A stretch of 64,000 nt of DNA. Origin: a bacterium CG10_46_32. Lineage in GTDB: Bacteria; Patescibacteriota; Patescibacteriia; UBA2169. A program made the translations under genes and the position numbers. Positions 21,840 to 49,400 of the stretch are shown one piece after another. The number at the start of each line of letters is the position of its first letter. The stretch's first letter is position 1. The stretch lies in contig MOEI01000006.1 of the NCBI GenBank assembly GCA_001889965.1, forward strand, positions 17,494-81,493. Direction: 5' to 3'. The notes under the pieces are model-generated. The model did no database searches, had not been told where the DNA came from, and saw only the letters and a list, made by a program, of their open reading frames with translations.

Positions 21840-21846
21840 GAGATAT

Positions 21847-23640
21847 ATGGCACTATCGCTTAAAGACAATCGAATTTCCAAAATCCTGTCGCTCTCGCGG
21901 CGCGCGTTTGGACGCTACAAATGGCAGATCGCGACATTGGCGGTTCTTGGACTTGTTACTGGCATTCTGGAGGGCGTTGGCGTTAACGCGTTGATCCCGC
22001 TGTTTTCGTTTGTTATCGGCACCAACGATGCCTCGATTGACCCGATTACGCGAAACATAGAAAGATTTTTTATTTTTATCCATATTCCATTTTCTCTTAA
22101 GTACCTGCTTATGTTCATCGTAGTGCTGTTTGTGCTTAAAGCGGTGATTATTTTGATTTTTAACTACATCAGAATCAAGATCGACACGAATTACGAAGAA
22201 ACTGTCCGGAATGACTTGTTTAAAAGCGTTTTGCTTGCGCAGTGGCCATACCTTCTTACACAAAAGATCGGCTATCTGGAAACAGTGCTAATGACTGATG
22301 TACTGCGTGGTTCTGTAATGTTGCGCCAAATAGGGAATATTATTATGGTAACAACCGGTCTTTTAGTGTATGCGCTGGTGGCAATCAATATTTCTCCAAT
22401 TATCACTATAAGCACGCTTGCGCTGGGTGCGGTTTTATTCCTGTTTTTTAAGCCGCTTCTGTATCGGACGCGTGTATGCGCGGTACGTGCGTCCGAGGCA
22501 AATAAAGAAGTTTCTCATTATGTGAATGAGAGTATTCTGGGGATGAAGACGATTAAGTCTATGCACGCGCATAGATGGGTGATTGCCAAAGGCGGAGAAT
22601 TTTTTGATGAATTAAAACGTTTAAAAATGATCACGCTTATTTTGAGCAGTGTTTCGAGCTCCCTGTTGCAGCCGATTAGTTTGATATTTATTGTTATTGT
22701 GTTTGCTCTAGCGTACAAAATGCCGGGATTTAGCGTTGCCGCGCTCATTGCGATTGTGTACTTGATTCAGAGGATTTTTCAGTACATTCAGCAGTTACAG
22801 TCCAATTTGCATGAGGCAAGCGATGCAGTGCCGTATTTGCAAAATCTCCTCGCATACCAGCAAAAAGCAGATGACCATCGAGAAAAAGATTTAGGGAAGA
22901 GCGAGTATTTATTTAAGCGCACGTTGTCGTTTAACAACGTCAGTTTTTCCTATCAGTTGGATCGGCCGGTATTGGATGGTCTCAGCTTTTCTATGAATAA
23001 GGGTGAAATGGTTGGTTTAATTGGCGAGTCTGGTTCCGGAAAAACCACTATTGTTGATTTGCTTTTACGTTTGTTTGATGCAAGCAAAGGGGAGATATTG
23101 CTTGATGGAAAAGATATTCGCGATGTGCGGCTCGGAGCATGGCGAAAGAACATTGGGTATGTTTCGCAAGATGTGTTTTTAATTAATGATACGATTGCTA
23201 ATAATATCAAGTTTTTTGATTCCGCTGTCTCGGACGCAGACGTTGTTGTTGCCGCAAAAATGGCGAATATTTATGAATTCATACAAAGCTGTCCAGATGG
23301 ATTTAAAACGATGGTGGGGGAGCGGGGGGTTATGCTTTCTGCGGGCCAGCGCCAGCGCGTTGCCATTGCCCGGGTATTGGCGCGCAAGCCAAAGATTTTG
23401 ATACTGGATGAAGCTACTAGTGCGCTTGATAATGAGTCTGAAGCGAAAATTCAGGAGGTTATCGAGAATCTTCGGCACAAGGTTACGGTTTTGGTTGTTG
23501 CGCATCGGCTTTCTACGGTTATGAGCGCGGACAAGCTTATTGTGTTGGAAAAAGGGATTATTATTGAAGAAGGCAAGCCGAAAGATTTGCTTAATGATGC
23601 ACATTCTTATTTTTACAAACTGAGTAATATGGTGAAGTAA
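21847..23640 (+). CDS. ABC transporter, fused permease/ATPase (type IV exporter, MsbA/PglK-like); candidate lipid-linked glycan flippase
   Basis: Six N-terminal TM helices, Walker A GESGSGKTT, signature LSAGQRQR, Walker B ILILDEATSALD. Confidence 0.85.
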   Translation: MALSLKDNRISKILSLSRRAFGRYKWQIATLAVLGLVTGILEGVGVNALIPLFSFVIGTNDASIDPITRNIERFFIFIHIPFSLKYLLMFIVVLFVLKAVIILIFNYIRIKIDTNYEETVRNDLFKSVLLAQWPYLLTQKIGYLETVLMTDVLRGSVMLRQIGNIIMVTTGLLVYALVAINISPIITISTLALGAVLFLFFKPLLYRTRVCAVRASEANKEVSHYVNESILGMKTIKSMHAHRWVIAKGGEFFDELKRLKMITLILSSVSSSLLQPISLIFIVIVFALAYKMPGFSVAALIAIVYLIQRIFQYIQQLQSNLHEASDAVPYLQNLLAYQQKADDHREKDLGKSEYLFKRTLSFNNVSFSYQLDRPVLDGLSFSMNKGEMVGLIGESGSGKTTIVDLLLRLFDASKGEILLDGKDIRDVRLGAWRKNIGYVSQDVFLINDTIANNIKFFDSAVSDADVVVAAKMANIYEFIQSCPDGFKTMVGERGVMLSAGQRQRVAIARVLARKPKILILDEATSALDNESEAKIQEVIENLRHKVTVLVVAHRLSTVMSADKLIVLEKGIIIEEGKPKDLLNDAHSYFYKLSNMVK

Positions 23641-25166
23641 TGAATATGAAAAAAGTTTTTTTAATAAATTTTTCTTCACAAATTCTCATTAACGTCGCTA
23701 ATAATTTAAAGGCGAATGGATCAGAGATTGTGTATTGGCAGGGTTATCGTGATGATTTTGACCATATGGATCGGAGTGAACATCCGGAAACCATATTTCA
23801 TCATGCGTTTGATGCCATTAAGAATATTTCACCCGAAGGAGTTGATGTATCTGAATTTGAACCAGTGAGCCATGAATTGGTCAGCCGGCTCTATGAGAGC
23901 GGCTGGCAGGCTTTAGCCATGATGAGCCGGGCTGATCATGCTGATTCTGTTTTTACTGAAAAACGGAATTATTATTATCAGTATTTAAAATTTTGGCAAG
24001 GCATGCTTAAAAGATTAAAGCCAGATGTGATTGTTTTTTCTGCCATCCCGCATTCAGCAACTAGCCATGTCCTGTATGCACTGGCAAAATTAATGAACAT
24101 CGAGACCATTATGATTAATCAGCTGACTATTGAGACGCGTGCCCTACTTATGACAGATTATCAAACCGATTCCGCAGCATTGCGGGACGAAGTAAAAAAA
24201 CATCGGTCGGCCAAGATCGGTATTGATACCTTGAGTCTGGATTTAAAAACATATTATTTAAACCACCTTGATCCGGCTATTGACTCAACGCCGCAATACA
24301 AAAAAGTTTACGCAAAAAGCAAGATGCCATTTGCTTTTCCGAGCGTGCCAACCATTATAAAACACCTATACCGATTGACTTTTTTTAACGTTGCGCGCTC
24401 GTACTTGACCATGATTTTAACCAAGAGAAAAATGAGTCACATCGGCCCGGTATTACGAGGTCAGTCGTACAAAAGTAAGATAAAAAAATGGAAGAAAGAA
24501 ATCGAGTGCGTTAAAAAAGAGTACGAAGCCCTGCAGCAACAGCCAGATTTGAATAAAAAGTTTGTTTATTTGCCTTTAAGTTTCCAGCCGGAGCAGACAA
24601 CTTGTCCTCGTGGTGATGTTTTTGACGATCAATTGCTTATGATAGATATCATATCTGCGTCGCTTCCAGAGGGATGGGTTTTGTATATTAAAGAACATGC
24701 GCCGCAGTGGTATCCGAAAAGCATTGAGGCATACCAGTACCGATATCAGGGCTACTATGAGAGAATTGCGTGCATGAAAAACACCATGTTGATTCCCGTG
24801 ACTACTTCAACATTTGATTTGATTGAACGAGCACAGGCTATTGCAACGGTTACTGGCACTGCAGGATGGGAGTCGCTGATACGATCCAAGCCAGTGTTGC
24901 TGTTTGGGTATATTTGGTATATGTACTGTGATGGCGTGTTTCAGGTGCAGGATGCGACTTCCTGCGCTAGAGCGTTTGAAGAAATATGCACCGGGTATCG
25001 CGTCGAATCGCAGAAAGTGATTAATTTTTTGGCCGCACTAGACTTGGTAAGCTTAAAAATTAAAAATTATAAAACACGTTTTTTTGTAGAGAGCGATGGC
25101 ATAACATTCGACGATAACGTTCGCGCGCTTACCAATGGTATTAGTAATATGATAAACAATTCGTAA
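23640..25166 (+). CDS. Capsule_synth-like (KpsS/KpsC/LpsZ-type) putative CMP-sugar-dependent GT-B glycosyltransferase
   Basis: C-terminal VYLPLSFQPEQT...WVLYIKEHAPQWYP resembles the HP-motif region of beta-Kdo and sialyl transferases. This is a weak call. Confidence 0.35.
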   Translation: MNMKKVFLINFSSQILINVANNLKANGSEIVYWQGYRDDFDHMDRSEHPETIFHHAFDAIKNISPEGVDVSEFEPVSHELVSRLYESGWQALAMMSRADHADSVFTEKRNYYYQYLKFWQGMLKRLKPDVIVFSAIPHSATSHVLYALAKLMNIETIMINQLTIETRALLMTDYQTDSAALRDEVKKHRSAKIGIDTLSLDLKTYYLNHLDPAIDSTPQYKKVYAKSKMPFAFPSVPTIIKHLYRLTFFNVARSYLTMILTKRKMSHIGPVLRGQSYKSKIKKWKKEIECVKKEYEALQQQPDLNKKFVYLPLSFQPEQTTCPRGDVFDDQLLMIDIISASLPEGWVLYIKEHAPQWYPKSIEAYQYRYQGYYERIACMKNTMLIPVTTSTFDLIERAQAIATVTGTAGWESLIRSKPVLLFGYIWYMYCDGVFQVQDATSCARAFEEICTGYRVESQKVINFLAALDLVSLKIKNYKTRFFVESDGITFDDNVRALTNGISNMINNS

Positions 25167-25169
25167 CCT

Positions 25170-26165: not shown

Positions 26166-26168
26166 TTT

Positions 26169-27278
26169 ATGATACCCTACGCACGACAACATATTAGTCA
26201 GGACGACATTGCGGCGGTTGCTTCCGCACTTCGTTCGGATTGGCTCACCCAAGGTCCTCAAGTTGCTGTGTTTGAAAAGGCTTTGGCTTTGTACTGCGGT
26301 GTCAAGTACGTGGTTGCTGTTTCTAACGGGACGGCCGCGTTGCATATAGCATACCTTGCGGCCGGCATTGTCAGCGGAGATGAGGCTATCACAACTCCAA
26401 ACACGTTTGTCGCAACTACTAATATGCTTTTGGCTGTGGGTGTTAAGCCCGTGTTTTCAGATATCCGTCTAGATACGTATAACCTGAACCAGGAGGAAAT
26501 TGAAAAGCATATTACTAAAAAGACCAAAGTAATCGTGCCGGTGCATTTTGCCGGGCAGTCGTGTGACATGTCCGCCATTAGGTCAATTGCCAAAAAGCAC
26601 AAGCTCTTGGTCATCGAAGATGCCTGCCATGCACTAGGTGGGCAATATAGGCAGAAAAAAATCGGCAGTTGCGCGTATTCGGATATGGCGGTGTTTAGCT
26701 TCCATGCTATTAAATCAATTACCACGGCGGAAGGTGGCGCAGTGCTTACAAATAATAAAAAGTTTTATGAAAAAATGCTGCGCGTGCGGAGCCATGGAAT
26801 CCATAAAGACAAGAGCGGATTTAATGTGATGTCTGAGTTTGGGTACAACTACCGGCTGACAGAGTTACAGGCGGCCCTAGGCTTGTCGCAACTTAAGCAG
26901 TTAAATCGTTTTATTGCGGCTCGACGCAAGGTTGCACGAGCATACCAGGTCGCGCTTGAAGGCATTCCAGGAATCATAGCGCCCACGGAGCTGGATCAGA
27001 ACACTTCTGCATGGCACCTGTACGTTATCCGAACCAAGAAAGCATCCGACCGATTGCCGCTGTATCGGCATTTGCAACAATCCGGGATTGGCATCAATTT
27101 TCATTATCCGGCAGTGTACAGCCATCCCTACTATAAAAAATTGGGTTTTAAAGGGCGTCAGTGTCCTCATATGGAGTTGTACGGCAAGACAGCAATTACT
27201 TTGCCGATGCATGTTTCTGTTTCCGAGCGCGATATTAAAACTATTGCTCAAGCTATCAAATTGTATTTTAACGTATGA
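26169..27278 (+). CDS. pseC: DegT/DnrJ/EryC1/StrS-family PLP aminotransferase (PseC-like)
   Basis: N-terminal pattern typical of sugar aminotransferases and the SFHAIKSITTAEGG Lys motif. Confidence 0.75.
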   Translation: MIPYARQHISQDDIAAVASALRSDWLTQGPQVAVFEKALALYCGVKYVVAVSNGTAALHIAYLAAGIVSGDEAITTPNTFVATTNMLLAVGVKPVFSDIRLDTYNLNQEEIEKHITKKTKVIVPVHFAGQSCDMSAIRSIAKKHKLLVIEDACHALGGQYRQKKIGSCAYSDMAVFSFHAIKSITTAEGGAVLTNNKKFYEKMLRVRSHGIHKDKSGFNVMSEFGYNYRLTELQAALGLSQLKQLNRFIAARRKVARAYQVALEGIPGIIAPTELDQNTSAWHLYVIRTKKASDRLPLYRHLQQSGIGINFHYPAVYSHPYYKKLGFKGRQCPHMELYGKTAITLPMHVSVSERDIKTIAQAIKLYFNV

Positions 27279-28393
27279 GAGTGTGTAAAAAATGCATTCA
27301 GCCGGACACCAGGCCAGGCATACGGTTCGATGAAAAAGGTGTTTGTCCGCCCTGTCGTTTTTCTGAAGTGCACGAAAAAATTAATTGGAAAAAACGACGC
27401 ACAGAACTTGAAAAACTTGCGGATTTTGGCAGGAGCCAGAATGTCTCGGGTTATGATTGTATTGTATCGGTCAGTGGAGGAAAAGACAGCATGCGGCAGG
27501 CTCTGTATATACGTGATGAATTAAGAATGAAGCCGTTGCTAGTATCATGCGCCTATCCTCCTGAGCATGTAACTGAACGGGGCGTGTATAATCTTGCGAA
27601 CCTTATTGAGATTGGTTTTGACTGCATTACCGCGACTCCAAATCCGCAGGCGTGGAAACAAATGGTAAAGGCTGGATTTTATCAGCATGGCAACCTTTTA
27701 AAATCATGTGAAATGGCTCTGTATATTACCGCGCCGAAAGTTGCCATTGCGTATCATATTCCTTTGATTTGTTTGGGCGAGAACCCCGCAATCACTATCG
27801 GCGCTTTAGAGGTTGGTTCCGTAACCGGAGACGCTAACCGCATGAAGCGTTCCAATACTTTGGCGGGCGGCCCGGAATCCGTCAAAACAAAAGACATTAC
27901 TGAACGCGATTTGTATTGGTACCACTACCCTAGTGACGACGAAATGTCCTGGGCGGGCATGAAGATTTTTTATCTTGGATATTATGTTAAGGATTTTAAT
28001 AAATTTAAAAATGCCTCTTTTTCAATCAAGCATGGGCTGGAAGTGCGTAAGGACACGCCGGCGAATACGGGCAACTATTATAATTTTGAATCCCTTGATA
28101 ATGACTTTTCTTTAATCAACCAGATGCTTAAATATTTCAAATATGGGTTTGGCCGAATTACGGATCAACTTTCCGAAGCAATTCGGCTTGGTATGATGAC
28201 CCGAGATCGAGCCATTGTAATCGCAAAAAGATACGATGGTGCATGTTCGGATGTATATATTAAACGTTTCTGCAAGTACATAGGCATTACTCAGAAAGAA
28301 TTTTGGCGGGTCGCTGATTTGTATCGGAATCGCGAGATTTGGGAAAAAGACAAAAAAGGCGCCTGGCATATTAAGCCCGCATATCAGTTATGA
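27275..28393 (+). CDS. N-acetyl sugar amidotransferase (WbpG/PseA-like PP-loop ATP pyrophosphatase)
   Basis: CxxC zinc ribbon (CKKC...CPPC) and the PP-loop SVSGGKDS. HisH/HisF homologues lie downstream. Confidence 0.7.
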   Translation: MRVCKKCIQPDTRPGIRFDEKGVCPPCRFSEVHEKINWKKRRTELEKLADFGRSQNVSGYDCIVSVSGGKDSMRQALYIRDELRMKPLLVSCAYPPEHVTERGVYNLANLIEIGFDCITATPNPQAWKQMVKAGFYQHGNLLKSCEMALYITAPKVAIAYHIPLICLGENPAITIGALEVGSVTGDANRMKRSNTLAGGPESVKTKDITERDLYWYHYPSDDEMSWAGMKIFYLGYYVKDFNKFKNASFSIKHGLEVRKDTPANTGNYYNFESLDNDFSLINQMLKYFKYGFGRITDQLSEAIRLGMMTRDRAIVIAKRYDGACSDVYIKRFCKYIGITQKEFWRVADLYRNREIWEKDKKGAWHIKPAYQL

Positions 28394-29013
28394 AGAATAC
28401 AATTGTTATAATTGATTACGGAGTCGGCAATGTTCGTTCTGTAAAAAATGCACTTTCGTCTTTGGGGTATACTACTGTAATTTCGCAAGAAAAACGGGAT
28501 ATACAGGGGGCGGCATGTGTAGTGTTGCCGGGAGTCGGGGCATTTGCAGAAGGAATGAAAAATTTAAAAGCGTTGGGCCTTTTGCCTATTTTACATGATG
28601 CGGCTATAAAAAATAAAAAGCCTTTTTTGGGGATTTGCCTGGGCATGCAGCTTTTGGCTGAATCGTCGGAAGAGGGTGGGGTGCATGCCGGCCTCGGATA
28701 TATTCCCGGGCACGTGGTTCGGTTTCCAGAAAAGAAAACGCCTCGAATTCCGCATGTAGGCTGGAATACGGTTTCCGTATCAAAAACATACCCCTTGTTT
28801 GGAGATTTTGAAGCAGGAGCGCATTATTATTTTGATCACAGTTTTTATTTTAACGCGCCTAAAAAACATGTCTTGGCAACGTGCGAGTACGGAATCCAAT
28901 TTCCCGCCGCGGTTGGATTTGGCAATATTTACGGCGTGCAGTTCCATCCAGAGAAAAGTCAAGCAAACGGATTAAAGCTGTTTAGAAGTTTTTTTAAGAG
29001 CCACAACCTTTAA
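28390..29013 (+). CDS. hisH: Imidazole glycerol phosphate synthase HisH-like glutamine amidotransferase subunit
   Basis: IDYGVGNVRSV, GVGAF, GICLGMQ and the His/Glu triad region. Confidence 0.8.
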   Translation: MKNTIVIIDYGVGNVRSVKNALSSLGYTTVISQEKRDIQGAACVVLPGVGAFAEGMKNLKALGLLPILHDAAIKNKKPFLGICLGMQLLAESSEEGGVHAGLGYIPGHVVRFPEKKTPRIPHVGWNTVSVSKTYPLFGDFEAGAHYYFDHSFYFNAPKKHVLATCEYGIQFPAAVGFGNIYGVQFHPEKSQANGLKLFRSFFKSHNL

Positions 29014-29017
29014 CCAT

Positions 29018-29887
29018 ATGCTTAAGAAAAGGATAATCGCATGCATGACCGTAAAAGACAACATAGTTGTCCAGAGTATTGGTTTTAAGCAATACTTGCC
29101 GGTTGGAAGACTTGCGGTAGCAATTGAATTCTTAAGCCAGTGGGGAATTGACGAAATTGCGATTCTGGATATTTCTGCCACGGCTGAAAAACGCGGTCCA
29201 AATTTCAAACTAATTGCCCAGGCCGCGAAAAAGTGTTTCACGCCTTTGGCCGTGGGTGGCGGCATTAGGGATATTGCTGACATGAGAAAATTGAACCAAT
29301 TAGGCGCGGAAAAAATTATTATAAATAATTTGGCTTTGAGTCAGGGCGAAATTATTAAAAAAGCTGCAGAGATTTTTGGCAGCCAATTTATAGTGGTTTC
29401 CATTGACGCAAAAAAAGTCGGCGGAACATATGAAGTATTTTCTGATGGCGGGCAAAAGCCAATCGGGCTGGAGGTTGGGGTTTTTGCTAGAAAAGTTGAA
29501 CAACTAGGCGCGGGCGAGATATTTTTGAATTCTATTGATCAAGATGGATCAAAAAAAGGCTTTGACTTGAGGCTCATTGATGCAGTTGTTTCCAAGGTTA
29601 CTGTTCCGGTTATAGCGTGTGGAGGCGCGGGCGAGCCTGATCATTTTAGGGAGGCGATCATCAAAACAAAAGCGTCCGCAATTGCGGCTGGAAACTTTTT
29701 TCATTTTACCGAACACAGCCCCATTGTGCTGAAATCGTTTTTAAAAAGTACGCGCGTTCCCGTGCGTCTCGAAACATATGCGCAGTACAATGACGCAACA
29801 TTCGACAGAAGCGGCCGGCTTCAGAAGCGGCCGGAGCAGTATTTGAATACGTTACGATTTACTTATTTGCCAGAGGAGATTATATGA
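29018..29887 (+). CDS. hisF: Imidazole glycerol phosphate synthase HisF-like cyclase subunit (WbuZ-type)
   Basis: RIIACMTV...GIDEIAILDISA...PLAVGGGIRD (TIM-barrel HisF motifs). Confidence 0.75.
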   Translation: MLKKRIIACMTVKDNIVVQSIGFKQYLPVGRLAVAIEFLSQWGIDEIAILDISATAEKRGPNFKLIAQAAKKCFTPLAVGGGIRDIADMRKLNQLGAEKIIINNLALSQGEIIKKAAEIFGSQFIVVSIDAKKVGGTYEVFSDGGQKPIGLEVGVFARKVEQLGAGEIFLNSIDQDGSKKGFDLRLIDAVVSKVTVPVIACGGAGEPDHFREAIIKTKASAIAAGNFFHFTEHSPIVLKSFLKSTRVPVRLETYAQYNDATFDRSGRLQKRPEQYLNTLRFTYLPEEII

Positions 29888-31140: not shown

Positions 31141-31141
31141 T

Positions 31142-34954: not shown

Positions 34955-34955
34955 T

Positions 34956-36014: not shown

Positions 36015-36487
36015 TGCGCATGCAATATACTCAGCAACACAGTACCATTCGTCCTATAATGCCAGAAGACGCTAAGCGTGTATGGGAAATTCGCAATCAC
36101 CCATCTGCTCGCTCGCATTCGGGAAATCCGGAGGCTATTTCTTATCAGCAGCATGCATCTTGGTTTGCAAATAAGTATTTTAGCGGCCTGGACAATACAG
36201 CGTTTGTGCTCGTCGTTGATGCGGGGCAGGTTGTTGGATATTGTCGGTTTGATTGCAATAAAGAACAGGGCGGTTATATTGTTTCTATTGCTATCGATTC
36301 TGATTTTCAGGGCAAAGGCTTTGGGCATGCATTATTGCGTGGCGCGTTGGATCAATATGCGCAGGGAAAAGTGATTTTTGCAGAAATTCAGAAAGATAAC
36401 ATTGCTTCTGTTCATTTGTTTAAAAAAAATGGATTTTCTATAGAAAGTGAAGATGAAAAAAAATATTATCTTTTGTTGAGAATGTAG
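36014..36487 (+). CDS. GNAT N-acetyltransferase, PseH-like
   Basis: VWEIRNHPSARSHS (PseH-like) and the GNAT motif A QGKGFGHALL. Length is 157 aa. Confidence 0.6.
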   Translation: MRMQYTQQHSTIRPIMPEDAKRVWEIRNHPSARSHSGNPEAISYQQHASWFANKYFSGLDNTAFVLVVDAGQVVGYCRFDCNKEQGGYIVSIAIDSDFQGKGFGHALLRGALDQYAQGKVIFAEIQKDNIASVHLFKKNGFSIESEDEKKYYLLLRM

Positions 36488-36488
36488 T

Positions 36489-39620: not shown

Positions 39621-39624
39621 TACT

Positions 39625-40782: not shown

Positions 40783-40793
40783 TTACTACGCAT

Positions 40794-41792
40794 ATGCACG
40801 AGCAATTTAAAGACAAAGTTATTCTTATTACTGGAGGGACAGGAACTATTGGATCTGAATTAGTTCAGCAGCTTTTAAAATGCCACCCAAAACAGGTGCG
40901 TATTTTGTCTCGTGAAGAGGGAAAGCAGTATGAGCTTTTGGAGCGGCTTAAGTACCCTAAAAATTTACGGCTTTTAATTGGTGATATCCGAGATCGTGAC
41001 CGCATTGATTATGCGTTTAAAGACGTGGATATCGTGCTGCATACCGCAGCCATGAAGCAGGTTCCGCTCTGCGAATACAATCCGGCTGAGGCGGTAAAAA
41101 CAAATATTGTTGGCAGCCAAAATGTGATTGACGCAAGCCTCAAGAATCAAGTGGAAAAGGTTATTGCGATTTCCACAGACAAGGCAGTATATCCAACGAA
41201 CGTTATGGGAACTTCCAAGCTCATGATGGAAAAAATGTTTATTAACGCCAATTGGACATCTGGTAAAGCGGTAACCAAATTTGCATGTGTACGTTTCGGA
41301 AATGTGGCATGGGCGCGCGGTAGCGTGCTTCCGCTTTGGAAGAAGCAGGCTGAAAATGAAAGTCGCATTAATATTACTAATCCAAACATGACGCGTTTTA
41401 TGATGTCTATTGAGCAGGCAGTTAATCTTGTGCTGAAAGCCGTAGAGCTTGTGCAGGTTGGAGAAATTTTTGTTCTTAAAATGTCGTCCATCACAATTGG
41501 AGAGCTAGGAAATATGTTTACTGCAAAGTATTATCCGGATAAAAAAATTGCCATTTCAGTAAGCGGCGACCGCGTAGGGGATAAAATGCACGAAGAGTTG
41601 GTAGATGACAACGATCGGACAAGCTATATTCTTGAAGATAAAGATATGTATATTTTTGTTCCTCGTTTTTTAGAGCTTTACGGGGTTGAGCAAGATGTGC
41701 CACAGTATGCCGGATTTACAAAGATTGATACGATTGGGCGGTATTCATCCGATGAGCATATTAATTCAGAAAAAATTAAATCTATTGTGTAA
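40794..41792 (+). CDS. Second UDP-sugar 4,6-dehydratase (PseB/LegB-type short enzyme)
   Basis: ILITGGTGTIGSEL, MGTSK and about 332 aa. Paralog of 25170-26165. Confidence 0.7.
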   Translation: MHEQFKDKVILITGGTGTIGSELVQQLLKCHPKQVRILSREEGKQYELLERLKYPKNLRLLIGDIRDRDRIDYAFKDVDIVLHTAAMKQVPLCEYNPAEAVKTNIVGSQNVIDASLKNQVEKVIAISTDKAVYPTNVMGTSKLMMEKMFINANWTSGKAVTKFACVRFGNVAWARGSVLPLWKKQAENESRINITNPNMTRFMMSIEQAVNLVLKAVELVQVGEIFVLKMSSITIGELGNMFTAKYYPDKKIAISVSGDRVGDKMHEELVDDNDRTSYILEDKDMYIFVPRFLELYGVEQDVPQYAGFTKIDTIGRYSSDEHINSEKIKSIV

Positions 41793-41801
41793 GAGTTTTA
41801 T

Positions 41802-42842
41802 ATGGCAACACACAATGATCTGGCGCGCGCGTATCTCACGCTCGGGTACCATTATATTAGACAGCCGGCTCAAAAAGATCCGTTTCCGCGGGTTAAGGGA
41901 AGCACGTGGAGTGATTTTGGAGCGCATCTGCGGATGATACAAAAATATTTTAATATCATCAGTCTAGATGATGTGTTGCGTTTTCATAGAAATGAGATTG
42001 AATTGTCGCTGACTAAGCCAAATATACTGCTAACTTTTGATGATGGTCTGGAGGAACATTGTAGGGTTGCTCAGATATTGGCTGAGTGTAAAATTCAAGC
42101 GGTGTTTTTTATTCCAACGTGTCTTTTGACAGATAGAGTTCCTATAAATACAACCATTCTGCATTATTCACTAGCTCGGTATGGATTAACTATTTTTTTG
42201 GATGCGTTTCATAAAGCTTTAATAGCGCACGGACTTAAGAACGAAGACTATCCGCTGTATTTTGCTAAAGGAATAGATAATCCTCCCGACAAAATTGTAG
42301 AGATAAAAAAAACCTTTAAGTATGGATTAAGCTACGAGAATTCGCAGGGTATTATTATGCATATTTATCAAGCTTTATTGCTCAAAGACTATCCGAATGC
42401 ATTTGAACTCATGCATATTGACGAAGACAAAGCGAAGAAGATTGTGGATTTTGGTCACAATATAGGAGCGCATACCCATTCACATATATCAGTAGGATCT
42501 ACTGATTTATCAGATGACGCTTTTCAGAAAGAAATTATTCATTCCAAAAATATTTTAGAAAGCAAGCTTGGCGTAAAAGTTGAAAGTATCTCTTATCCTT
42601 TTGGAGAAAAACGAGATTATGACTCTATTGAAGAAAAAATAAGAAAAATGGGGACCTATCAAGCAGGTTTTACGGCCGAGCCGTCTCTTAACACAAAAGA
42701 AACATCACCATTAAAGATTGGGCGATATCTACCTCTTAAAGCTGATACTTCTGATATTTTATTTGATAAATTAAAATCATTACAGATGGGTAAGGAGATA
42801 CTATGGAAATATTGGGAGTTGGCACGGACATCGAAATCATAA
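41802..42842 (+). CDS. Polysaccharide deacetylase (NodB homology domain)
   Basis: ILLTFDDGLEEH motif. Confidence 0.65.
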   Translation: MATHNDLARAYLTLGYHYIRQPAQKDPFPRVKGSTWSDFGAHLRMIQKYFNIISLDDVLRFHRNEIELSLTKPNILLTFDDGLEEHCRVAQILAECKIQAVFFIPTCLLTDRVPINTTILHYSLARYGLTIFLDAFHKALIAHGLKNEDYPLYFAKGIDNPPDKIVEIKKTFKYGLSYENSQGIIMHIYQALLLKDYPNAFELMHIDEDKAKKIVDFGHNIGAHTHSHISVGSTDLSDDAFQKEIIHSKNILESKLGVKVESISYPFGEKRDYDSIEEKIRKMGTYQAGFTAEPSLNTKETSPLKIGRYLPLKADTSDILFDKLKSLQMGKEILWKYWELARTSKS

Positions 42843-43150
42843 ATTCGTTTAGGGCTAAGCCGTATGATGGGCACAAGGTATTGTACAATAAGATTTTTAG
42901 CAAAGCTGAAATTAGTTACTGCTTAAACAAAAATGATAGCTACGCTAGTTTTGCGGGAAAGTTTTGCGCCAAAGAAGCCGTGATAAAAGCGTTTAAGCAT
43001 ACTAATCTTTTTGATATTATATCTGTTGAAATTATAAATAATGCAAACGGCGAACCCGAAGCGTTTACAAACGGAAATAAATTACATTGTTTTTTGTCGA
43101 TTTCACATACCAACGATCAAGCGCTCGCGTTCTGCGTGGCGTATGCGTAA
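42803..43150 (+). CDS. acpS: Holo-[acyl-carrier-protein] synthase (4'-phosphopantetheinyl transferase, AcpS type)
   Basis: GVGTDIEII...FAGKFCAKEAVIKA motifs. Length is 115 aa. Confidence 0.7.
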   Translation: MEILGVGTDIEIINSFRAKPYDGHKVLYNKIFSKAEISYCLNKNDSYASFAGKFCAKEAVIKAFKHTNLFDIISVEIINNANGEPEAFTNGNKLHCFLSISHTNDQALAFCVAYA

Positions 43151-43151
43151 T

Positions 43152-44687
43152 ATGGCTCATCTTGTACAACAATATATTGATCGTAATGCACGACAGAATC
43201 CAAAAAAGACGGCTGTAGTGTTTAACGATGAAAGTATAACGTATAAGGATTTGGAGGAATATACAAACCAGCTTGGCCGCGTGCTTAAAAAAGCTGGTGT
43301 AGGCAAAGGGGATCGAGTTTGTTTTTGCCTATATAAATCAATCAATTCCATTAAAGCCATTTTTGGTATTCTAAAAGCGGATGCAAGCTATGTGCCTTTG
43401 GATGCGTTTTCTCCGGCCGCGCGTTTAAAAAAAATTACACAAGACGCCGAACCCAAGGTGCTGGTCTGCGATACAGATACTATGGCACTGGTTAAATCCA
43501 TTATTCCTGTATCTGTCACTGTAGTGTGCTTAGGGAAGAAACGGGTAGATGACAGTATTCTTGCAGAAAAAAAAATCAGCCCTTCTTGTACAAATACTCC
43601 GGAAGACGTAGCATATATTTTTTACACCTCCGGCTCGACCGGAACCCCCAAAGGTGTTATGATAACTCATCGTAATCTTAATGGATGCGCAGATTGGGCT
43701 GTGCGTGAGTTCGGCATTACCAAAAAGGACACGCTCTCTTCCCACCCACCGTTTCATTTTGACCTATCAACGTTTGATATATATGCATGCTTTAAGGCAG
43801 GCGCAACATTGGTTATTGTTCCTGAAAAATTTTCTGTATTTCCGGGCGCGCTTTTAGACTATATTGAGCACCATAGTATGACCATTTGGAATTCCGTGCC
43901 GTCACTCCTCTCGTATGTGGCGCGTTCCGGAGTTTTAACCAAAGATCGTATCCCGCTCGTTAAAAAGATTTTTTTTAACGGTGAAGTGTTTTCACCAAAA
44001 TATCTTGCCCAATGGATGACAATGTATCCTAAAAAAGAATTCGTAAACATGTATGGGCCAACAGAAGCAACAGTGCAGTGCAGTTTTTATCGAATTAAAA
44101 GAGTGCCGAAAAATTTGAAAAAGCCAGTACCTATTGGAAAATCTTGCAGCAACGCTAAAATTTTTGCGGTTACAGTGGATGGCAAAATCGCACGGCCGGG
44201 TCAGCGCGGCGAATTATACATTGGCGGTAGCGGGGTTGGTCGTGGATATTGGAGGAATAGGGAAAAAACCAAAGAATCCTTTGTGCAAAATCCTTTTGCC
44301 GCACCCAAAGGAATCGTGTATAAAACCGGAGACTTTGTATTATACAATAAAAATAAGGAGTACGAGTTTTTAGGAAGGATCGACCACCAGGTGAAGCATA
44401 TGGGCTACCGCATTGAATTAGGAGAGGTGGAGTCCGCGCTTTTGTCTATCTCATACATAAAAGAAGCAATCGTGGTTGCATACGAGAAAGAAACTGGAAA
44501 TGAACTGGCCGCATTTGTAGTTACATCCGGTAAGCGTTCTGCGGCGAGCATAATAGCAGACCTCCGCACGATTGTCCCTGCGTACATGGTTCCGGGCAAG
44601 GTGCTCATGCTTCCGTCATTACCAAAAACCAGCACTGGAAAAACAGACCGTGTGACATTAAAGGAACAGTATGTCGCAAAAGTATAA
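43152..44687 (+). CDS. Adenylate-forming enzyme (AMP-dependent ligase; DltA / amino-acid-or-acyl carrier protein ligase-like)
   Basis: YTSGSTGTPKGV A3 motif, YGPTEAT, and the YKTGD...GRxDxQVKxxGxRIELGE A8-A10 region. ATG at 43152, right after the acpS stop. Confidence 0.8.
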   Translation: MAHLVQQYIDRNARQNPKKTAVVFNDESITYKDLEEYTNQLGRVLKKAGVGKGDRVCFCLYKSINSIKAIFGILKADASYVPLDAFSPAARLKKITQDAEPKVLVCDTDTMALVKSIIPVSVTVVCLGKKRVDDSILAEKKISPSCTNTPEDVAYIFYTSGSTGTPKGVMITHRNLNGCADWAVREFGITKKDTLSSHPPFHFDLSTFDIYACFKAGATLVIVPEKFSVFPGALLDYIEHHSMTIWNSVPSLLSYVARSGVLTKDRIPLVKKIFFNGEVFSPKYLAQWMTMYPKKEFVNMYGPTEATVQCSFYRIKRVPKNLKKPVPIGKSCSNAKIFAVTVDGKIARPGQRGELYIGGSGVGRGYWRNREKTKESFVQNPFAAPKGIVYKTGDFVLYNKNKEYEFLGRIDHQVKHMGYRIELGEVESALLSISYIKEAIVVAYEKETGNELAAFVVTSGKRSAASIIADLRTIVPAYMVPGKVLMLPSLPKTSTGKTDRVTLKEQYVAKV

Positions 44688-44928
44688 CATTCAAAAAATC
44701 GAATCAAGCCTAAAATCTTTTTTGGAAAAAGAAACCAAGAGTGTTATCGCGAGCCGCGACACTGATTTGGTCAAGAAAGGCATTATCAGCTCCTTGGATA
44801 TGTTTTTACTGATTGAATTTATAGAAAAAAAATTCAAAGTGAGTGTGGACATCACCACGCTTAATCCAGAAAATTTTAATTCACTCCGGTCTATCGCCGC
44901 GCACATCGCACTATGGACATCGATATAA
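44671..44928 (+). CDS. Acyl/peptidyl carrier protein (DltC-like)
   Basis: 85 aa with the GIISSLDMFLLIEFIE phosphopantetheine attachment site. Confidence 0.65.
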   Translation: MSQKYNIQKIESSLKSFLEKETKSVIASRDTDLVKKGIISSLDMFLLIEFIEKKFKVSVDITTLNPENFNSLRSIAAHIALWTSI

Positions 44929-45983
44929 GATACGTCAAAAAAAATGAAGTAAAAAAGCTTGTCGCTTTTAACAAGGCGCAGTATCGTCCAGGCCACATCC
45001 TTACGAATAAGCGATATCTGGACTGGCAGTTCGGCAGCCTGAACGCCCTGCGTTCCGAGTATACAGTCCTTGGGGTTTTTGACGCAAAAGAAAATCTGCT
45101 GGGAACATTTGGATTCACTTTTTTGGATTTTTTGTGTTTTGGGAAAAAGGTTACTGCCACCAGTTGTGCTAATTTGATGGTGAATAGCTCGCTTCGTAAT
45201 ATGGGATTGGGATATGCGCTCTTGCGCAAAGCACAGGAACTGCACCGCATTACGCTGGATCATGGGCTGAATGCAGATGCGCTGCGTCTTTTTTTGGGGA
45301 TGGGTTGGTCTGGTGGAGATTTAAATCGGCATGCGTTTATCGTCAATAGCGCGGGGATTAAAAAAATAATCAAGAAGCAGGGTGCGCTAATCCAAGACTC
45401 AACAGCAGTTCCGGTTAATCCGAATGGGTTGGAGCTGGTTGCCCTTAAAAAGTATGATGTGCGACTTGAGGCCTTATTTAAAAAAACAAAATCAAAATAT
45501 CCCATTACCGTGGCGCGGAGCAAGAAATATCTTAATTGGCGTTATTTTAAACACCCACTTATTACGTACTCTGTTTTTGTCGCTACAAAAAACGGGAAGT
45601 TCGAATCGTTTGTAGTTGTTCGCATGGAGGGATCAAAACAGTTAAAAGCTGGCAGGATTGTTGATTTTATTTCCACAGATAGCGCGGAGGCGTTTTCTTT
45701 TGCGGGTGTTGTAGATTTTTGTCGGATACAGGGCGCACATTTTATTGATTATTATTTTTCTGGGAATTTTCATGTGCGCGGATTAGCGCGTGCAAGGTTT
45801 GTTGATTGTTCATCCGGATCGTTTGTTTTATTGCCAAAGTTTTTAAATCCTGTAGTTGTGACAGAATATAATGCCATTAATATGGTAGTTTGCACAACGA
45901 TGCGTACTATTAGTAAAAAAATTAGGAATATTAATAATTGGTACACTACCAAAGGAGGTGGTGACCAGGATCGTGCGTACTAG
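44913..45983 (+). CDS. GNAT-fold (FemAB/Acetyltransf_6-like) acyltransferase, hypothetical
   Basis: NMGLGYALL GNAT motif A-like. About 356 aa could hold two GNAT-like halves. Its position after the ligase and carrier protein supports the call. Confidence 0.35.
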   Translation: MDIDIRYVKKNEVKKLVAFNKAQYRPGHILTNKRYLDWQFGSLNALRSEYTVLGVFDAKENLLGTFGFTFLDFLCFGKKVTATSCANLMVNSSLRNMGLGYALLRKAQELHRITLDHGLNADALRLFLGMGWSGGDLNRHAFIVNSAGIKKIIKKQGALIQDSTAVPVNPNGLELVALKKYDVRLEALFKKTKSKYPITVARSKKYLNWRYFKHPLITYSVFVATKNGKFESFVVVRMEGSKQLKAGRIVDFISTDSAEAFSFAGVVDFCRIQGAHFIDYYFSGNFHVRGLARARFVDCSSGSFVLLPKFLNPVVVTEYNAINMVVCTTMRTISKKIRNINNWYTTKGGGDQDRAY

Positions 45984-45989
45984 ATAACT

Positions 45990-46835
45990 ATGAATACGAA
46001 TAAAAATTATTTAGAATGGAAAAAACAGTCCGATCCAGATAAGGGCTTTGCGGTACGAGGTACGCTCGTAGAACATGCGGCAAAAAAAGGTTTTAACGCC
46101 ATCATCGATGAGTATGTTTATATTTATCCCGAAAATATAGAACGAACATTTCGGTTGTTGCCTTTGGCGTGGGAATCTTTTAAAGGTGTAGGAGTTGATT
46201 TGGGTGGCGGTGTTGGGTGCGTCGCAGCTACTATAGCCAGAAAACCTGAAGTGGAGAAAATATACTGTGTCGAGTTTACAAAAGAAGTTGTTGAACTGTG
46301 TCAGTCGATTGTAAAACAGGTTGTTTTGCCAGGCAAGGAGGACAAGGTGGTTTCTGTTCTTGGTGATTTTGACAACCTAGAGCTTGCGGATGGCTCTATT
46401 GATTTTGCGATTGATTGGGATTCTCTACATCATTCTTATGATGTAATAAAAACATTGCGCGAGTGTCATCGTGTTTTAAAACCGAGCGGCCGGCTTATTA
46501 TGGTTGATCGAGTACACAACAATAATACGCCGGAGTCTGAACTCGAACGCCGTCGTACTATTGTGTACGATAAAGAATTTTTGCGGAGAAATTATTTGGA
46601 CGAAAATATAGTACTCACTCGAAAGGATTTAGGCGAACATGAATGGCGATTTCGTGAGTGGGAAAGTTTTTTTTCCGCAGCGGGTTTTAAGGTGCTAGAT
46701 ACCATAATTATTAAAACAGATACTGAGGATAATCGGGCAATAAAGAATGACAAAAATTTAGTCGAAATTTTAACAAACTATAATTTAGGCGGTTTTGGAA
46801 GCCGTAAAGTTGGCTATATTCTTGAGGCCCTATAA
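45990..46835 (+). CDS. Class I SAM-dependent methyltransferase
   Basis: VGVDLGGGVGCVA motif I and VLKPSGRLIM. Confidence 0.65.
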   Translation: MNTNKNYLEWKKQSDPDKGFAVRGTLVEHAAKKGFNAIIDEYVYIYPENIERTFRLLPLAWESFKGVGVDLGGGVGCVAATIARKPEVEKIYCVEFTKEVVELCQSIVKQVVLPGKEDKVVSVLGDFDNLELADGSIDFAIDWDSLHHSYDVIKTLRECHRVLKPSGRLIMVDRVHNNNTPESELERRRTIVYDKEFLRRNYLDENIVLTRKDLGEHEWRFREWESFFSAAGFKVLDTIIIKTDTEDNRAIKNDKNLVEILTNYNLGGFGSRKVGYILEAL

Positions 46836-46848
46836 TACGACATTGATT

Positions 46849-47997
46849 ATGCAAAAAAAGAAGATTATTTTTTTAACGGGCACACGAGCCGATTTTGGAA
46901 AAATAAAGCCGTTGATTGATGTGACGATGCGTGCAAATATATTTGAAGTGCATATTTTTGCAACAGGCATGCACTTGAGCAAAAAATACGGATACACAAT
47001 GAACGAAATAAAAAAGTGCGGCTTTGAGAATATCTATCCGTTTGATAATGACGTTGAAAGCGGAAGCCTGAGCAGCGTCCTTGCAAACACGATTAATGGT
47101 TTTGGCGATTATGTACAAGCGTTGCAGCCAAATTTGATTATTGTTCATGGGGATCGAGTTGAAGCGCTCGCCGGCGCATTAGTCGGCTCCCTGAATAATA
47201 TTATTGTTGCACACGTGGAAGGCGGAGAGGTTTCCGGAACCATTGATGAACATATACGGCATGCAATAAGCAAAATGTCACATATTCATTTTGTGGCAAA
47301 TGCGGAAGCCCAGAAACGCCTCGTGCAGATGGGGGAATCAGATGAGGTGATTCATGTTATCGGTTCACCGGATCTAGACATAATGACTTCTTCGGATTTG
47401 CCCAGTATGGAGGAAGCCAAGCAGAAATACAGCATACCTTTTGGTCGCTATGCTATTTTACTCTACCATCCTGTAACTTCGGAGTTGGATAAACTTCAGG
47501 TGCATGCTGATGACTTGGTTTCTGAAGTGTTTGATTCAGGGCTCAATTATATCGTTGTATATCCGAATAGCGATCCGGGTTCGGATTGCATTCTTAAAAG
47601 CTATCAGGAACACTTAGAGGTGAATGATCGTTTTCGAGTTATCCCTTCGGTTCGGTTTGAGCATTTTTTGACGCTCATCAAGCATGCTAAATTTATTATT
47701 GGAAACTCAAGCGTTGGCATTCGGGAGGCGCCTTTTTACGGAGTTCCCAGTATTAATATCGGTACGCGTCAGCATCGACGGCTTAAGCCTGGCACTGCCA
47801 AGAGTATTGTGGATGTGCCAGATGATCGGAGTGAAATAGCGCGCGCTATCCGCGATGCAGCTAAGATCGAAAAACGGTATGAAAAGAATCAGTACTTTGG
47901 AGACGGTAACAGTGCCAAGCGTTTTTATAGCATTATCACTCGGGATGATTTTTGGAACACCAACGCCCAGAAATTTTTTGTTGATTTATACGAGTAA
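46849..47997 (+). CDS. Third UDP-GlcNAc 2-epimerase homologue (NeuC-like, hydrolysing type)
   Basis: IIFLTGTRADFGKIKPL, HVEGGEVSGTIDE and IGNSSVGIREAP motifs. ATG at 46849. Confidence 0.75.
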   Translation: MQKKKIIFLTGTRADFGKIKPLIDVTMRANIFEVHIFATGMHLSKKYGYTMNEIKKCGFENIYPFDNDVESGSLSSVLANTINGFGDYVQALQPNLIIVHGDRVEALAGALVGSLNNIIVAHVEGGEVSGTIDEHIRHAISKMSHIHFVANAEAQKRLVQMGESDEVIHVIGSPDLDIMTSSDLPSMEEAKQKYSIPFGRYAILLYHPVTSELDKLQVHADDLVSEVFDSGLNYIVVYPNSDPGSDCILKSYQEHLEVNDRFRVIPSVRFEHFLTLIKHAKFIIGNSSVGIREAPFYGVPSINIGTRQHRRLKPGTAKSIVDVPDDRSEIARAIRDAAKIEKRYEKNQYFGDGNSAKRFYSIITRDDFWNTNAQKFFVDLYE

Positions 47998-49400
47998 TGA
48001 GAGGCATGACTATTTTTATTACCATTGCCAAAGGATTAATTGCTCGCAACCTCCTGCAGAATGATTTTTATGCACTCGTAAAAAAACATTTCGACAAAGT
48101 GGTTGTATTGAGCACTGCGTGGAGCGATGAACGATTTGTTACTGAGTTTGGCGGCAGTAATGTGGTATTTTTGCCACTACCTCAGGCGCCGGATACGTTT
48201 GCGAGTAAGCTTATTGGCAACCTAAGCCGGTATATTATCTATAACGGCAGGACCGAAATGATGAGTGCGTATAATTTTGATCGCGGCAAGGATGTGCCTG
48301 TTATATGGTGGTACCCAAAATACCTCATTCTTAAGGCGGTGTTTGTACCGCTTTCAAAAATTACTTCTTTGCGAAAATTATTGCGCAAGATTGATGTTGC
48401 ATTTTTACATAAAAAGACCGTGGCAAAGTACCGCGCGCTTATTAAAGAGCATGCTCCAAATGTGGTATTTGTTTCTAATATAGTGGATAATACCGAAGCT
48501 GCTTTGGTAAAAGCAGCACGCCGAGAAAGGGTTCCCAGCGTTGCTATGGTTAAGAGCTGGGATAATTTTTCCAAGCAATATTTTGGCGCATCCGCAGATA
48601 CGTTTGCCGTGTGGAATCAGTTTATGGCGGAACAGGCGCATGCGCTGCAGGATTATAAAAAGGAAGCTATTGCTATTGTGGGCGTTCCTCAGTTTGATTA
48701 CTATGCAGACCATTTCTGTATTGTGCCACGAGAGGTGTTTTGTAAGCGCGCGGGTTTGGATCCGAATAAAAAGATTATTTTTTTCGGGTCAGAGGGCAAG
48801 CTTATGCCTACAGATCCAAATATCGTAGAGGTGATGCGTGATTTTATAAAAAATAACGAACTTGCCGAGGAGTGCCAGGTGTTTGTGCGGCCGCATTTTG
48901 CCTACACACATGACCGCGAAAAATTTAAAGATTTTTTTAGTTCAAAAGAAGTGGTGGTAGATGCATCTCATAAATCCTCTTCGGGTTTTTCGGATGGCTG
49001 GGATTATTCTAGAGAACAAATGGAGTACTTCCTCAATGCCATTCATCATGCTGCTGTGGTTGTCAATACTGCGTCTACGCTTACGGCAGATGCCTTAGCG
49101 CTCAATCGACCTGTTATTTTAATTGCGTTTGAGGGATACGAGAAAAAAACAACTTACGAATCTGTTGCCGGGTGGTATACAAGCGATTATTACCAAAAAA
49201 TTGTTTCGTTTCATGCCGCGCTCATGGCAGATAGCGTTGCGCGCTTGCGTTCTGCGATTAATGAGTGTCTTGCCGATCCCGACATACTCTCCCCGGCGCG
49301 CAAAAAGTTTAAAGATTATTTTTGTTTTAAGGTGGATGGCGGCGCAGGCAAACGTTTATTTAGTGTAGTATATCAAGAAACAAATAGTATTAAAAATTAA
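47997..49400 (+). CDS. GT-B-fold HP-motif transferase, paralog of 36489-37901
   Basis: CQVFVRPHFAYTHDRE and VGVPQFDYY. Length is 467 aa. Confidence 0.4.
   Translation: MRGMTIFITIAKGLIARNLLQNDFYALVKKHFDKVVVLSTAWSDERFVTEFGGSNVVFLPLPQAPDTFASKLIGNLSRYIIYNGRTEMMSAYNFDRGKDVPVIWWYPKYLILKAVFVPLSKITSLRKLLRKIDVAFLHKKTVAKYRALIKEHAPNVVFVSNIVDNTEAALVKAARRERVPSVAMVKSWDNFSKQYFGASADTFAVWNQFMAEQAHALQDYKKEAIAIVGVPQFDYYADHFCIVPREVFCKRAGLDPNKKIIFFGSEGKLMPTDPNIVEVMRDFIKNNELAEECQVFVRPHFAYTHDREKFKDFFSSKEVVVDASHKSSSGFSDGWDYSREQMEYFLNAIHHAAVVVNTASTLTADALALNRPVILIAFEGYEKKTTYESVAGWYTSDYYQKIVSFHAALMADSVARLRSAINECLADPDILSPARKKFKDYFCFKVDGGAGKRLFSVVYQETNSIKN

Follow-up and report, generated by a model that had tools for sequence, protein, structure and literature searches.

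The 64-kb window considered here, meaning the whole stretch of DNA that was analysed, belongs to the metagenome-assembled genome 'bacterium CG10_46_32' of the Patescibacteria (candidate phyla radiation, CPR) from Crystal Geyser, and it encodes three proteins, all annotated as hypothetical, which we call T1 (508 aa), T2 (470 aa) and T3 (467 aa). From comparison of their sequences we favour the explanation, which we rate as fairly probable, that all three are GT-B fold nonulosonate transferases using donors activated by cytidine monophosphate (CMP), and that they serve two supply lines for such donors. T1 is a divergent KpsS1-like enzyme and is the strongest candidate for nonulosonate transfer, and T2 and T3 are distant relatives of the teichoic acid enzymes TagF and TarL. 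Relatives of all three come chiefly from Patescibacteria metagenome bins.

A first-pass annotation of this DNA had brought the three open reading frames (ORFs) together as proteins that lack the EX7E signature of GT4 enzymes and share a basic-residue/His-Pro motif, and had likened them to sialyltransferases, beta-Kdo transferases and TagF-like enzymes. The ORFs are found on the + strand where it had placed them, and the short motifs it quoted are all present (YIKEHAPQW in T1, LFLRPHFSN and VGMPQFDWY in T2, VFVRPHFAY and VGVPQFDYY in T3). The remark on EX7E also holds, as none of the three matches Glycos_transf_1, T3 has no EX7E at all, and those of T1 and T2 are chance occurrences away from any invariant Glu. 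GT4 membership was itself considered and rejected, there being neither a conserved Glu pair in either family nor a Glycos_transf_1 domain. The idea of one motif common to all three did not survive: T1 and T2/T3 belong to two different superfamilies, and the apparent sharing is therefore convergent or analogous. A single family was likewise rejected, T1 falling with Capsule_synth and T2 and T3 with TagF-like proteins. The likeness to beta-Kdo transferases and TagF is thus retained in divided form, T1 being homologous to KpsC and KpsS1 and T2/T3 to TagF, and Pfam sialyltransferase families gave no match to T1, T2 or T3 at E<=1 (Pfam models only).

The placement of T1 is based on several profile comparisons. 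PF05159 (Capsule_synth) matches the C-terminal part only of T1, at 22.5 bits against a cut-off of 20, and a precomputed PF05159 hit exists for most of its relatives. When 66 relatives were made into a profile, it matched KpsC structures in the PDB (E 7e-12), and profile-profile alignment by hhalign with the KpsC/KpsS modules, represented by E. coli-type sequences taken from a Klebsiella plasmid, gave 97.1% probability (E 4.8e-11) over both domains. The alignment with KpsS1 of Acinetobacter baumannii gave 99.6% and E 3.5e-24, pairing T1 101-444 with KpsS1 95-421 over ~320 columns and setting QPE on HPE and K-E-H on K-D-H. The KpsS1 sequence was that of a K-locus gene (L032) found through a tblastn match and recognised by its YE132 motif and by where it lies in the K locus, downstream of psePse genes. 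PMC12887879, citing Walklett 2024, describes KpsS1 (GT118) as a retaining Pse5Ac7Ac pseudaminyltransferase proven in vitro, and names Glu132 of the YE motif as its proposed general base. Five residues are invariant among the 66 relatives of T1 (P317, E318, K351, R368 and E411). Since K351-E-H353-A354 falls on K192-V-H194-P195 of KpsC, the motif noted at first in T1 corresponds to the HP position of that protein. The invariant Q316-P317-E318 lies in the nucleophile loop, and the relatives also conserve P137-H138, four residues past the YE position of KpsS1. The AlphaFold2 (AF2) model of T1 has a predicted local distance difference test (pLDDT) score of 94.4.

T2 and T3 align end to end by BLASTP (31% identity, E 5e-65) and are therefore paralogs, as had been claimed at the outset. 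The AF2 model of T2 (pLDDT 96.2) is a GT-B fold. Among 93 relatives W195, D196, D241, R305, D328, D452 and G453 are invariant, and T3 keeps KSWDN, PQFD, RPHF and DGxxxxR. The first-pass annotation had proposed alignment as a check for a conserved His, and here the two families part: R305 is kept in 93/93 and H307 in 86/93 of the T2/T3 relatives (Tyr in 6), whereas H353 of T1 is kept in only 39/66. Single-sequence phmmer searches with T2 and T3 gave no match among PDB sequences. The profile of 93 relatives matches TarL at the common C-terminal D-G-x-S-S-x-R, and hhalign against four annotated TagF-like proteins, taken from plasmids for comparison, gave 97.2% (E 4e-11), with G-M-P-Q-F-D of T2 on G-V-P-R-T-D and R305-P-H307 on K-M-H433 of TarL. 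H433 of TarL contacts the alpha-phosphate and protonates the CMP leaving group (PMC10901376). TagF-like enzymes need two invariant His residues, a base in Q-x-W-H (TagF H444, TarL H300) and the leaving-group His (TagF H584, TarL H433) (PMC10901376). In the N-domain of T2/T3 no His reaches 85% conservation among the 93 relatives, and the catalytic-base His was not found there. W195-D196 are the only invariant residues of that domain, in the loop after its third-last strand, where by topology they appear to occupy the place of TarL W299-H300. Further, A-P-T-x-R, invariant in the four TagF-like proteins, becomes G-S-[E/A]-G in T2/T3, and a helical insertion at T2 residues 66-160, which includes amphipathic helices, has a mean net charge of +10.7 compared with +2.3 for the rest of the protein. 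The N-half of both proteins also matches NF046086, the model of the BFO_1060 family, at model positions of about 31-171 of 365, a region that spans W195-D196 and PQFD. BFO_1060 is found in FDC 92A2 and is homologous to Tanf_01245 and TFUB4_00887 of Tannerella forsythia, and knock-out of either of the latter two removes the terminal pseudaminic acid (Pse) or legionaminic acid (Leg) derivative from the T. forsythia O-glycan (PMC5420450).

A separate observation concerns a NeuC-like gene of the window (39541-40782, + strand), which has weak matches both to the BFO_1060 model (E 8e-4) and to the T2/T3 family hidden Markov model (E 1.6e-5). These cross-matches fit a remote shared ancestry of the epimerase_2 and T2/T3 N-domains.

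In the window T1 adjoins PseB and PseC, which catalyse the first two steps of pseudaminic acid synthesis. T2 sits between a PseH-like GNAT gene (PseI lying further upstream) and a downstream CMP-nonulosonate synthetase, and T3 directly follows a NeuC-type gene, so that the earlier remark that each of these two paralogs neighbours a NeuA- or NeuC-type gene is borne out. The locus holds two nonulosonate synthases and two CMP-nonulosonate synthetases in total, and searches of the 64-kb window with Pfam and NCBIfam found no cytidylyltransferase beyond these two synthetases. The stop codon of an ATP-binding cassette (ABC) exporter gene overlaps the start of T1 by 1 base, and such a gene directly precedes the T1-like gene in five other CPR loci (L004, L005, L007, L008 and L010); in L009 the two are separated by one gene. 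Elsewhere, a Bacteroidota contig carries NeuB, CMP-nonulosonate synthetase, a T1-like gene and Wzx consecutively, and in a 3-Mb genome a full legionaminic-type gene set is flanked by two T1-like genes.

For T2 and T3, a T2-family alignment recovered 23 genome loci with the T2-family pattern. In at least 16 of the 23, NeuB/PseI, CMP-nonulosonate synthetase or NeuC genes lie within 10 kb, the exceptions being mostly short contigs. Two or three T2/T3-type paralogs per locus are common: a T2-like and T3-like pair is conserved in L005, L007, L013, L016 and L021, three tandem copies stand beside NeuB and CMP-nonulosonate synthetase in L035, and loci with a NeuC-type gene but no PseB/PseC likewise hold 2-3 T2-type genes each. 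Both families are found in a cultured organism, Rhizobium sp. WL3, whose plasmid NZ_CP042825 (L031) encodes homologs of T1 (E 3e-44) and of T2/T3 (tblastn E 3e-10 against the plasmid collection and 2e-15 to 4e-18 against two loci; 1.2e-47 with the T2/T3 profile), all annotated hypothetical. That locus includes two NeuB-type genes, two CMP-nonulosonate synthetases, NeuC, WbuX/WbuZ/HisH and a transporter of Wzm/Wzt type. At 621533-627382 it encodes, one after another, four hypothetical proteins of 449-513 aa, one a T1 homolog and one weakly T2-like, and a separate T2/T3 homolog lies at 632582-633976.

From the homology, conserved residues, fold and gene context that we observe, we infer donors, acceptors and catalytic roles along the following lines. 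The locus would comprise two CMP-nonulosonic acid supply lines, one of the pseudaminic acid type and one of the NeuB/NeuC/NeuA type, together with the enzymes that spend these donors. The C-terminal Rossmann domain of T1 would bind the CMP-nonulosonate, the phosphate lying at K351 and H353 and the ribose at E411. E318 would take, or lie close to, the nucleophile's position in a double-displacement mechanism, and an N-domain residue, possibly H138, would activate the acceptor on a lipid-linked glycan. T1 would thus probably add a nonulosonate to a lipid-linked glycan, which would then be exported by the translationally coupled PglK/MsbA-like ABC transporter. T2 and T3 would be membrane-associated TagF-fold enzymes converted from phosphotransfer to glycosyl transfer. 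In these R305-P-H307 may stabilise or protonate the departing CMP, much as H433 does in TarL, W195-D196 may replace the W-H catalytic base with D196 activating the acceptor hydroxyl, and the basic amphipathic insertion (66-160) may hold the enzyme to the membrane. Between the two paralogs the difference is probably one of donor, or else of acceptor and linkage, with roughly one per pathway.

A number of observations weigh against this explanation and should be considered together. In T1 the HP-position His is replaced by Asn in 18 and by Ser in 7 of the 66 relatives, leaving it in 59%; the Pro of that position is kept in 39/66, T1 itself reading H-A-P. The Asp of QXXXD is the invariant nucleophile of beta-Kdo transferases (PMC10148158), yet in the KpsC alignment that Asp160 falls on T320 of T1 (column T39, S11, N9), two residues downstream of E318, although Q156 does fall on Q316. 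The KpsC base Glu66 aligns with N160 of T1 (Glu or Asp in that column in 36/66 relatives), and KpsS1 Glu132 aligns with S134 in a variable column (S19, P16, A7, G6). Foldseek returned only generic GT-B matches for T1 (template modelling score, TM, ~0.2). For T2 the matches were again generic at TM ~0.5, with MshA, UDP-GlcNAc 2-epimerases and TagF about equal (TagF E about 1e-12). PF04464, the sole Pfam family above threshold for T2 and T3, is marginal at 24.8 and 23.5 bits against a cut-off of 22.1, and the NF046086 match is 49.8 bits for each (E 2.7e-13) against a cut-off of 200. Alignments of the T2/T3 and TagF-like N-domains by hhalign in local, low-mact and global modes gave inconsistent and unreliable registers, and because of this the equivalence of W-D with W-H is argued from topology. 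In Bacillus subtilis, deletion of SpsB does not reduce Leg on the spore surface (PMC7439481), and since SpsB is dispensable for Leg, gene context alone is no proof of nonulosonate transfer. The first-pass claim that these are the best candidates for nonulosonate transferases accordingly keeps the homology to KpsS1, the leaving-group His and the gene context in its favour, and has the poorly conserved His of T1 and the SpsB example to answer. Lastly, canonical PseG is not detectable in the window (no TIGR03590) or in the CPR loci, L001 included, and some relatives are GNAT-T2 fusions of ~620-630 aa with the GNAT domain first (proteins P0002, P0010, P0012, P0014 and P0027, and one in L001 at 9554-11416); either observation could point to a biosynthetic role for T2.

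The SpsB result therefore makes a teichoic-type role for T2 and T3 a live rival. Here they would be true TagF/TagB-type phosphotransferases that use a CDP-linked donor to transfer glycerol-, ribitol- or sugar-phosphate into a teichoic-acid-like polymer, and the nonulosonate would be installed by T1 or by a fourth ORF discussed below. PF04464 being the only family above its gathering score would suit this, as would the TarL match with its common DGxSSxR, the hhalign result in which the leaving-group His is kept, and the annotation of several T2/T3 relatives by NCBI and JGI as CDP-glycerol glycerophosphotransferase. The first-pass annotation had named a TagF-only match with no nonulosonate link as evidence against its proposal. 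What was found is in between, a marginal PF04464 match as the only one above threshold, yet in a nonulosonate gene context. Set against the phosphotransferase role are the absence of the invariant base His, the change of A-P-T-x-R to G-S-[E/A]-G, and the match of the N-half to the BFO_1060 nonulosonate transferase family. No CDP-polyol synthesis gene was found in the 64-kb window or in 22/23 related loci: Pfam and NCBIfam found no TagD, TarI or TarJ in the window, and TarI and TarJ were not found by tblastn in the loci. The one locus to the contrary is L007 of Magasanikbacteria, where, with the window and 27 related loci searched, the sole tblastn match to a TagD-like (glycerol-3-phosphate cytidylyltransferase-like) gene lies at 5030-5428 between T1-like and T2-like genes; this match is only a lead. 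On balance we regard a teichoic-type role as unlikely.

A second rival is a variant of the favoured explanation and not its opposite, namely that T1 is a KpsS/KpsC-type primer enzyme making a lipid-linked ulosonic-acid anchor, comparable to the poly-Kdo linker of group 2 capsules, with no decoration of repeat units and with T2 and T3 polymerising on the primer. Its appeal lies in the Capsule_synth homology of T1 to both KpsC and KpsS, in the conserved and translationally coupled exporter-T1 gene pair and in the Wzm/Wzt-type locus of the Rhizobium homolog, and KpsS and KpsC function with ABC transporters (PMC10148158). T1 is, however, much closer by E-value to KpsS1, an enzyme of the Wzx/Wzy pathway, than to KpsS/KpsC, the exporter is of PglK/MsbA type and not KpsMT type, and no Kdo synthesis genes are present in the window. 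This, too, seems to us improbable.

The missing PseG and the GNAT-T2 fusions were the grounds on which T2 was examined as a PseG substitute, the Pse gene set at 25170-36487 being otherwise complete and the PseH-like GNAT and T2 genes lying 1 base apart. That T2 is a non-orthologous replacement for this UDP-sugar hydrolase, which would explain its adjacency and fusion to an acetyltransferase acting just before PseG and would agree with a PseG-like GT-B fold and with Foldseek matches to nucleotide-sugar 2-epimerases and hydrolases, we consider very unlikely, as T2-type genes are present in 2-3 copies in NeuC-type loci without PseB/PseC, T3, with identical invariant residues, stands in a pathway that contains NeuC and has no need of PseG, an acceptor bound to the membrane is suggested by the basic amphipathic insertion, T2 has no sequence similarity to PseG, and a better candidate lies among the Pse genes. 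Identification of T2, T3 or that candidate as PseG by sequence was rejected, with no TIGR03590 match, phmmer E>0.2 against A. baumannii PseG, and an hhalign probability of 1% for the candidate's family.

The candidate, ORF 33348-34265 (hereafter ORF 33348), is a fourth relative, absent from the first-pass annotation. Its place among the Pse genes is the one expected for PseG, and L001 has an ortholog at the same position. Its family has an invariant H217-P218 in an 'IRxHPSE' motif and aligns with the T2/T3 family by hhalign at 97.6% (E 4.4e-12), R215-x-H217 falling on R305-P-H307, and the protein is without the basic helical insertion of T2/T3. The family is large, with 2773 representative clusters at E<=1e-3, in CPR and also in Mariprofundaceae; 10/10 sampled clusters were hypothetical or unnamed, and relatives have weak matches to TIGR04396 and BFO_1060. 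Because T2-type genes occur in multiple copies in NeuC loci that have no PseB/PseC, ORF 33348 is a better candidate than T2 for a soluble PseG-like step, or it may be one more transferase. For T2 and T3 the better fit is a role as transferases associated with the membrane.

Taking these proteins together, a bolder idea is that T2, T3 and ORF 33348 represent a large unclassified glycosyltransferase clan derived from the TagF scaffold, in which a change of the base from W-H to W-D made a CMP-nonulosonate glycosyltransferase out of a CDP-polyol phosphotransferase, and which with T1 and the PglK-type exporter builds a nonulosonate-rich, possibly sulfated and aminoacylated surface polymer widespread in CPR. 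We hold this tentatively, at somewhat less than even credence.

The principal features of the locus are given in Table 1. The window is nearly all a single-strand glycan island, opposite-strand genes occurring only at 60249-63977. Upstream of the ABC exporter and T1 lie GT4 and GT2 enzymes, GtrA, WecB, an AsnB-type amidotransferase, methyltransferases, a carbamoyltransferase and a deacetylase.

Table 1. Genes of the nonulosonate region, with the basis of each assignment
Feature	Position	Strand	Basis
Fused transmembrane domain-nucleotide-binding domain ABC exporter half-transporter, HepA/MsbA/PglK-like	21784..23640	+	NCBIfam HepA_fam_ABC E 3e-108, MsbA E 4e-95, PglK E 5e-66; all under equivalog cut-offs
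T1, KpsS1/GT118-like (Capsule_synth superfamily), putative retaining nonulosonate transferase	23640..25166	+	PF05159, KpsC/KpsS1 alignments
PseB	25170-26165	+	TIGR03589 439 bits vs cut-off 407.75
PseC	26169-27278	+	TIGR03588 459 bits vs cut-off 423.5
Tailoring genes: two WbuX amidotransferases, HisH, WbuZ/HisF (acetamidino formation), Gfo/Idh/MocA oxidoreductase, DegT aminotransferase	27275..33351	+	
ORF 33348, fourth HP-motif GT-B protein, 305 aa, unannotated	33348..34265	+	Family alignment with T2/T3
PseF-like CMP-Pse synthetase	34259-34954	+	161 bits, under its cut-off
PseI synthase	34896-36014	+	TIGR03586 462.7 bits vs cut-off 340
PseH-like GNAT	36014-36487	+	PseH match E 5e-10; A. baumannii PseH E 7e-4 (tblastn)
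T2, TagF-fold, BFO_1060-like putative CMP-nonulosonate glycosyltransferase	36489..37901	+	PF04464, NF046086, AF2, hhalign
Second nonulosonate pathway and tailoring: CMP-nonulosonate synthetase, NeuB-like, NeuC-like 1, PseB/FnlA-like dehydratase, deacetylase; onward, AcpS-type phosphopantetheinyl transferase, DltA-like adenylation enzyme, GNAT-like unknown, methyltransferase, NeuC-like 2	37849..47997	+	
T3, T2 paralog, putative second CMP-nonulosonate glycosyltransferase	47997..49400	+	GenBank start 3 codons later

Several neighbouring genes point to further modification of the glycan. The two WbuX-type N-acetyl sugar amidotransferases (29% identical) flank a single HisH/WbuZ pair at 27275-31140 (+), an arrangement that suggests acetamidino groups at two or more positions, or on two or more sugars. 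Within the second nonulosonate pathway, at 42803-45983 (+), the gene for the AcpS-type phosphopantetheinyl transferase overlaps that for the DltA-like adenylation enzyme, and the GNAT-like unknown follows; no carrier protein ORF of at least 100 aa was seen, and the set hints at aminoacyl or acyl decoration of a sugar. At 53284-57295 (+) there is a sulfotransferase, and after it comes a 930-aa protein that fuses a pyruvate-kinase (PK) barrel, PUA_2, ATP sulfurylase and adenosine 5'-phosphosulfate (APS) kinase. A similar PK-PUA-ATP-sulfurylase protein and an APS kinase adjoin T2-like genes in another CPR genome (L035 1-2352). These sulfotransferase and ATP sulfurylase genes suggest a sulfated glycan and an unusual architecture for synthesis of 3'-phosphoadenosine 5'-phosphosulfate (PAPS). 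Upstream of the ABC exporter, at 17687-21839 (+), are a CotH-kinase and beta-helix protein (891 aa), a VTC-domain protein and a DUF4956 membrane protein, and the VTC and DUF4956 pair recurs beside a T3-like gene in a Taylorbacteria genome (L021 1921-3405).

Bacteria of this lineage are known for very small genomes, and here nearly all of a 64-kb window is given to an elaborate surface glycan, which bears on the interaction of episymbiont and host. No paper linking CPR or Patescibacteria with nonulosonic or pseudaminic acid was found in the literature searched. Of the steps in bacterial sialic-acid-like glycobiology, the transfer of pseudaminic, legionaminic and related acids is the one whose enzymes are least defined. 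Among the enzymes considered here only KpsS1 has been demonstrated in vitro (cited in PMC12887879), the T. forsythia pair being known from knock-out genetics. T1 counts as a divergent example of the GT118-like kind, which was defined recently. T2, T3 and ORF 33348 make up a lineage of their own, found mainly in CPR, within a fold already known; for its relatives that have been characterised as nonulosonate-transferring, the evidence is genetic. The locus thus offers four candidates from two superfamilies, with residues suited to mutation in T1 (E318, H353, H138) and T2 (D196, H307), and Rhizobium sp. WL3 is a cultured organism in which both families are open to genetic testing. A catalytic His-to-Asp switch might separate phosphotransferases from nonulosonate transferases within PF04464 and, if this is true, many 'CDP-glycerol glycerophosphotransferase' labels in databases would be corrected.

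Among known systems KpsS1 is the nearest to T1. The two have x-P-E-x-[ST]-T, [YI]-[VI]-K-[DE]-H and G-[YW]-E-A-L in common, and both genes adjoin pseudaminic acid genes (psePse in A. baumannii) and a flippase or exporter gene. They differ in that identity is ~18% in the profile alignment (tblastn gives 27% across 132 residues), HPE in KpsS1 is QPE in T1, the base Glu132 is not present in T1, and T1 is mostly found in Patescibacteria, paired with an ABC exporter instead of Wzx. KpsC/KpsS (GT107) and WbbB (GT99) fall in the same Capsule_synth Pfam family as T1, and their K-x-H-P position and G-F/W-E-A-L nucleotide-binding helix align with it. From the nucleophile loop to the HP His there are 34-38 residues in the Kps proteins and 35 in T1, which nevertheless is without the QXXXD Asp and base Glu66 of this group.

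The counterparts of T2 and T3 are more varied. They resemble TagF, TarL and TagB in the GT-B fold, G-x-P-[QR]-x-D at the domain junction, [KR]-x-H and the C-terminal D-G-x-S-S-x-R, and their basic insertion resembles membrane-binding elements described for TagF and TarL; in place of the Q-x-W-H base and A-P-T-x-R they have the invariant W-D and G-S-x-G. Canonical PseG, likewise a GT-B fold protein and one expected in a Pse gene set beside PseH, has no detectable sequence similarity to T2, T3 or ORF 33348. SpsB, which is likened to T2/T3 by description only, is TagB-like, has HP motifs and is encoded beside a CMP-Leg pathway; the COG group is named 'TagB/SpsB family', a label that JGI gives to one T2 relative. 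Tanf_01245 and TFUB4_00887 of T. forsythia share with T2 and T3 a TagB-like GT-B domain, an HP-type motif and a place among nonulosonate pathway genes, T2 and T3 being ~100 residues longer than the 365-position BFO_1060 family model through which alone the comparison was made.

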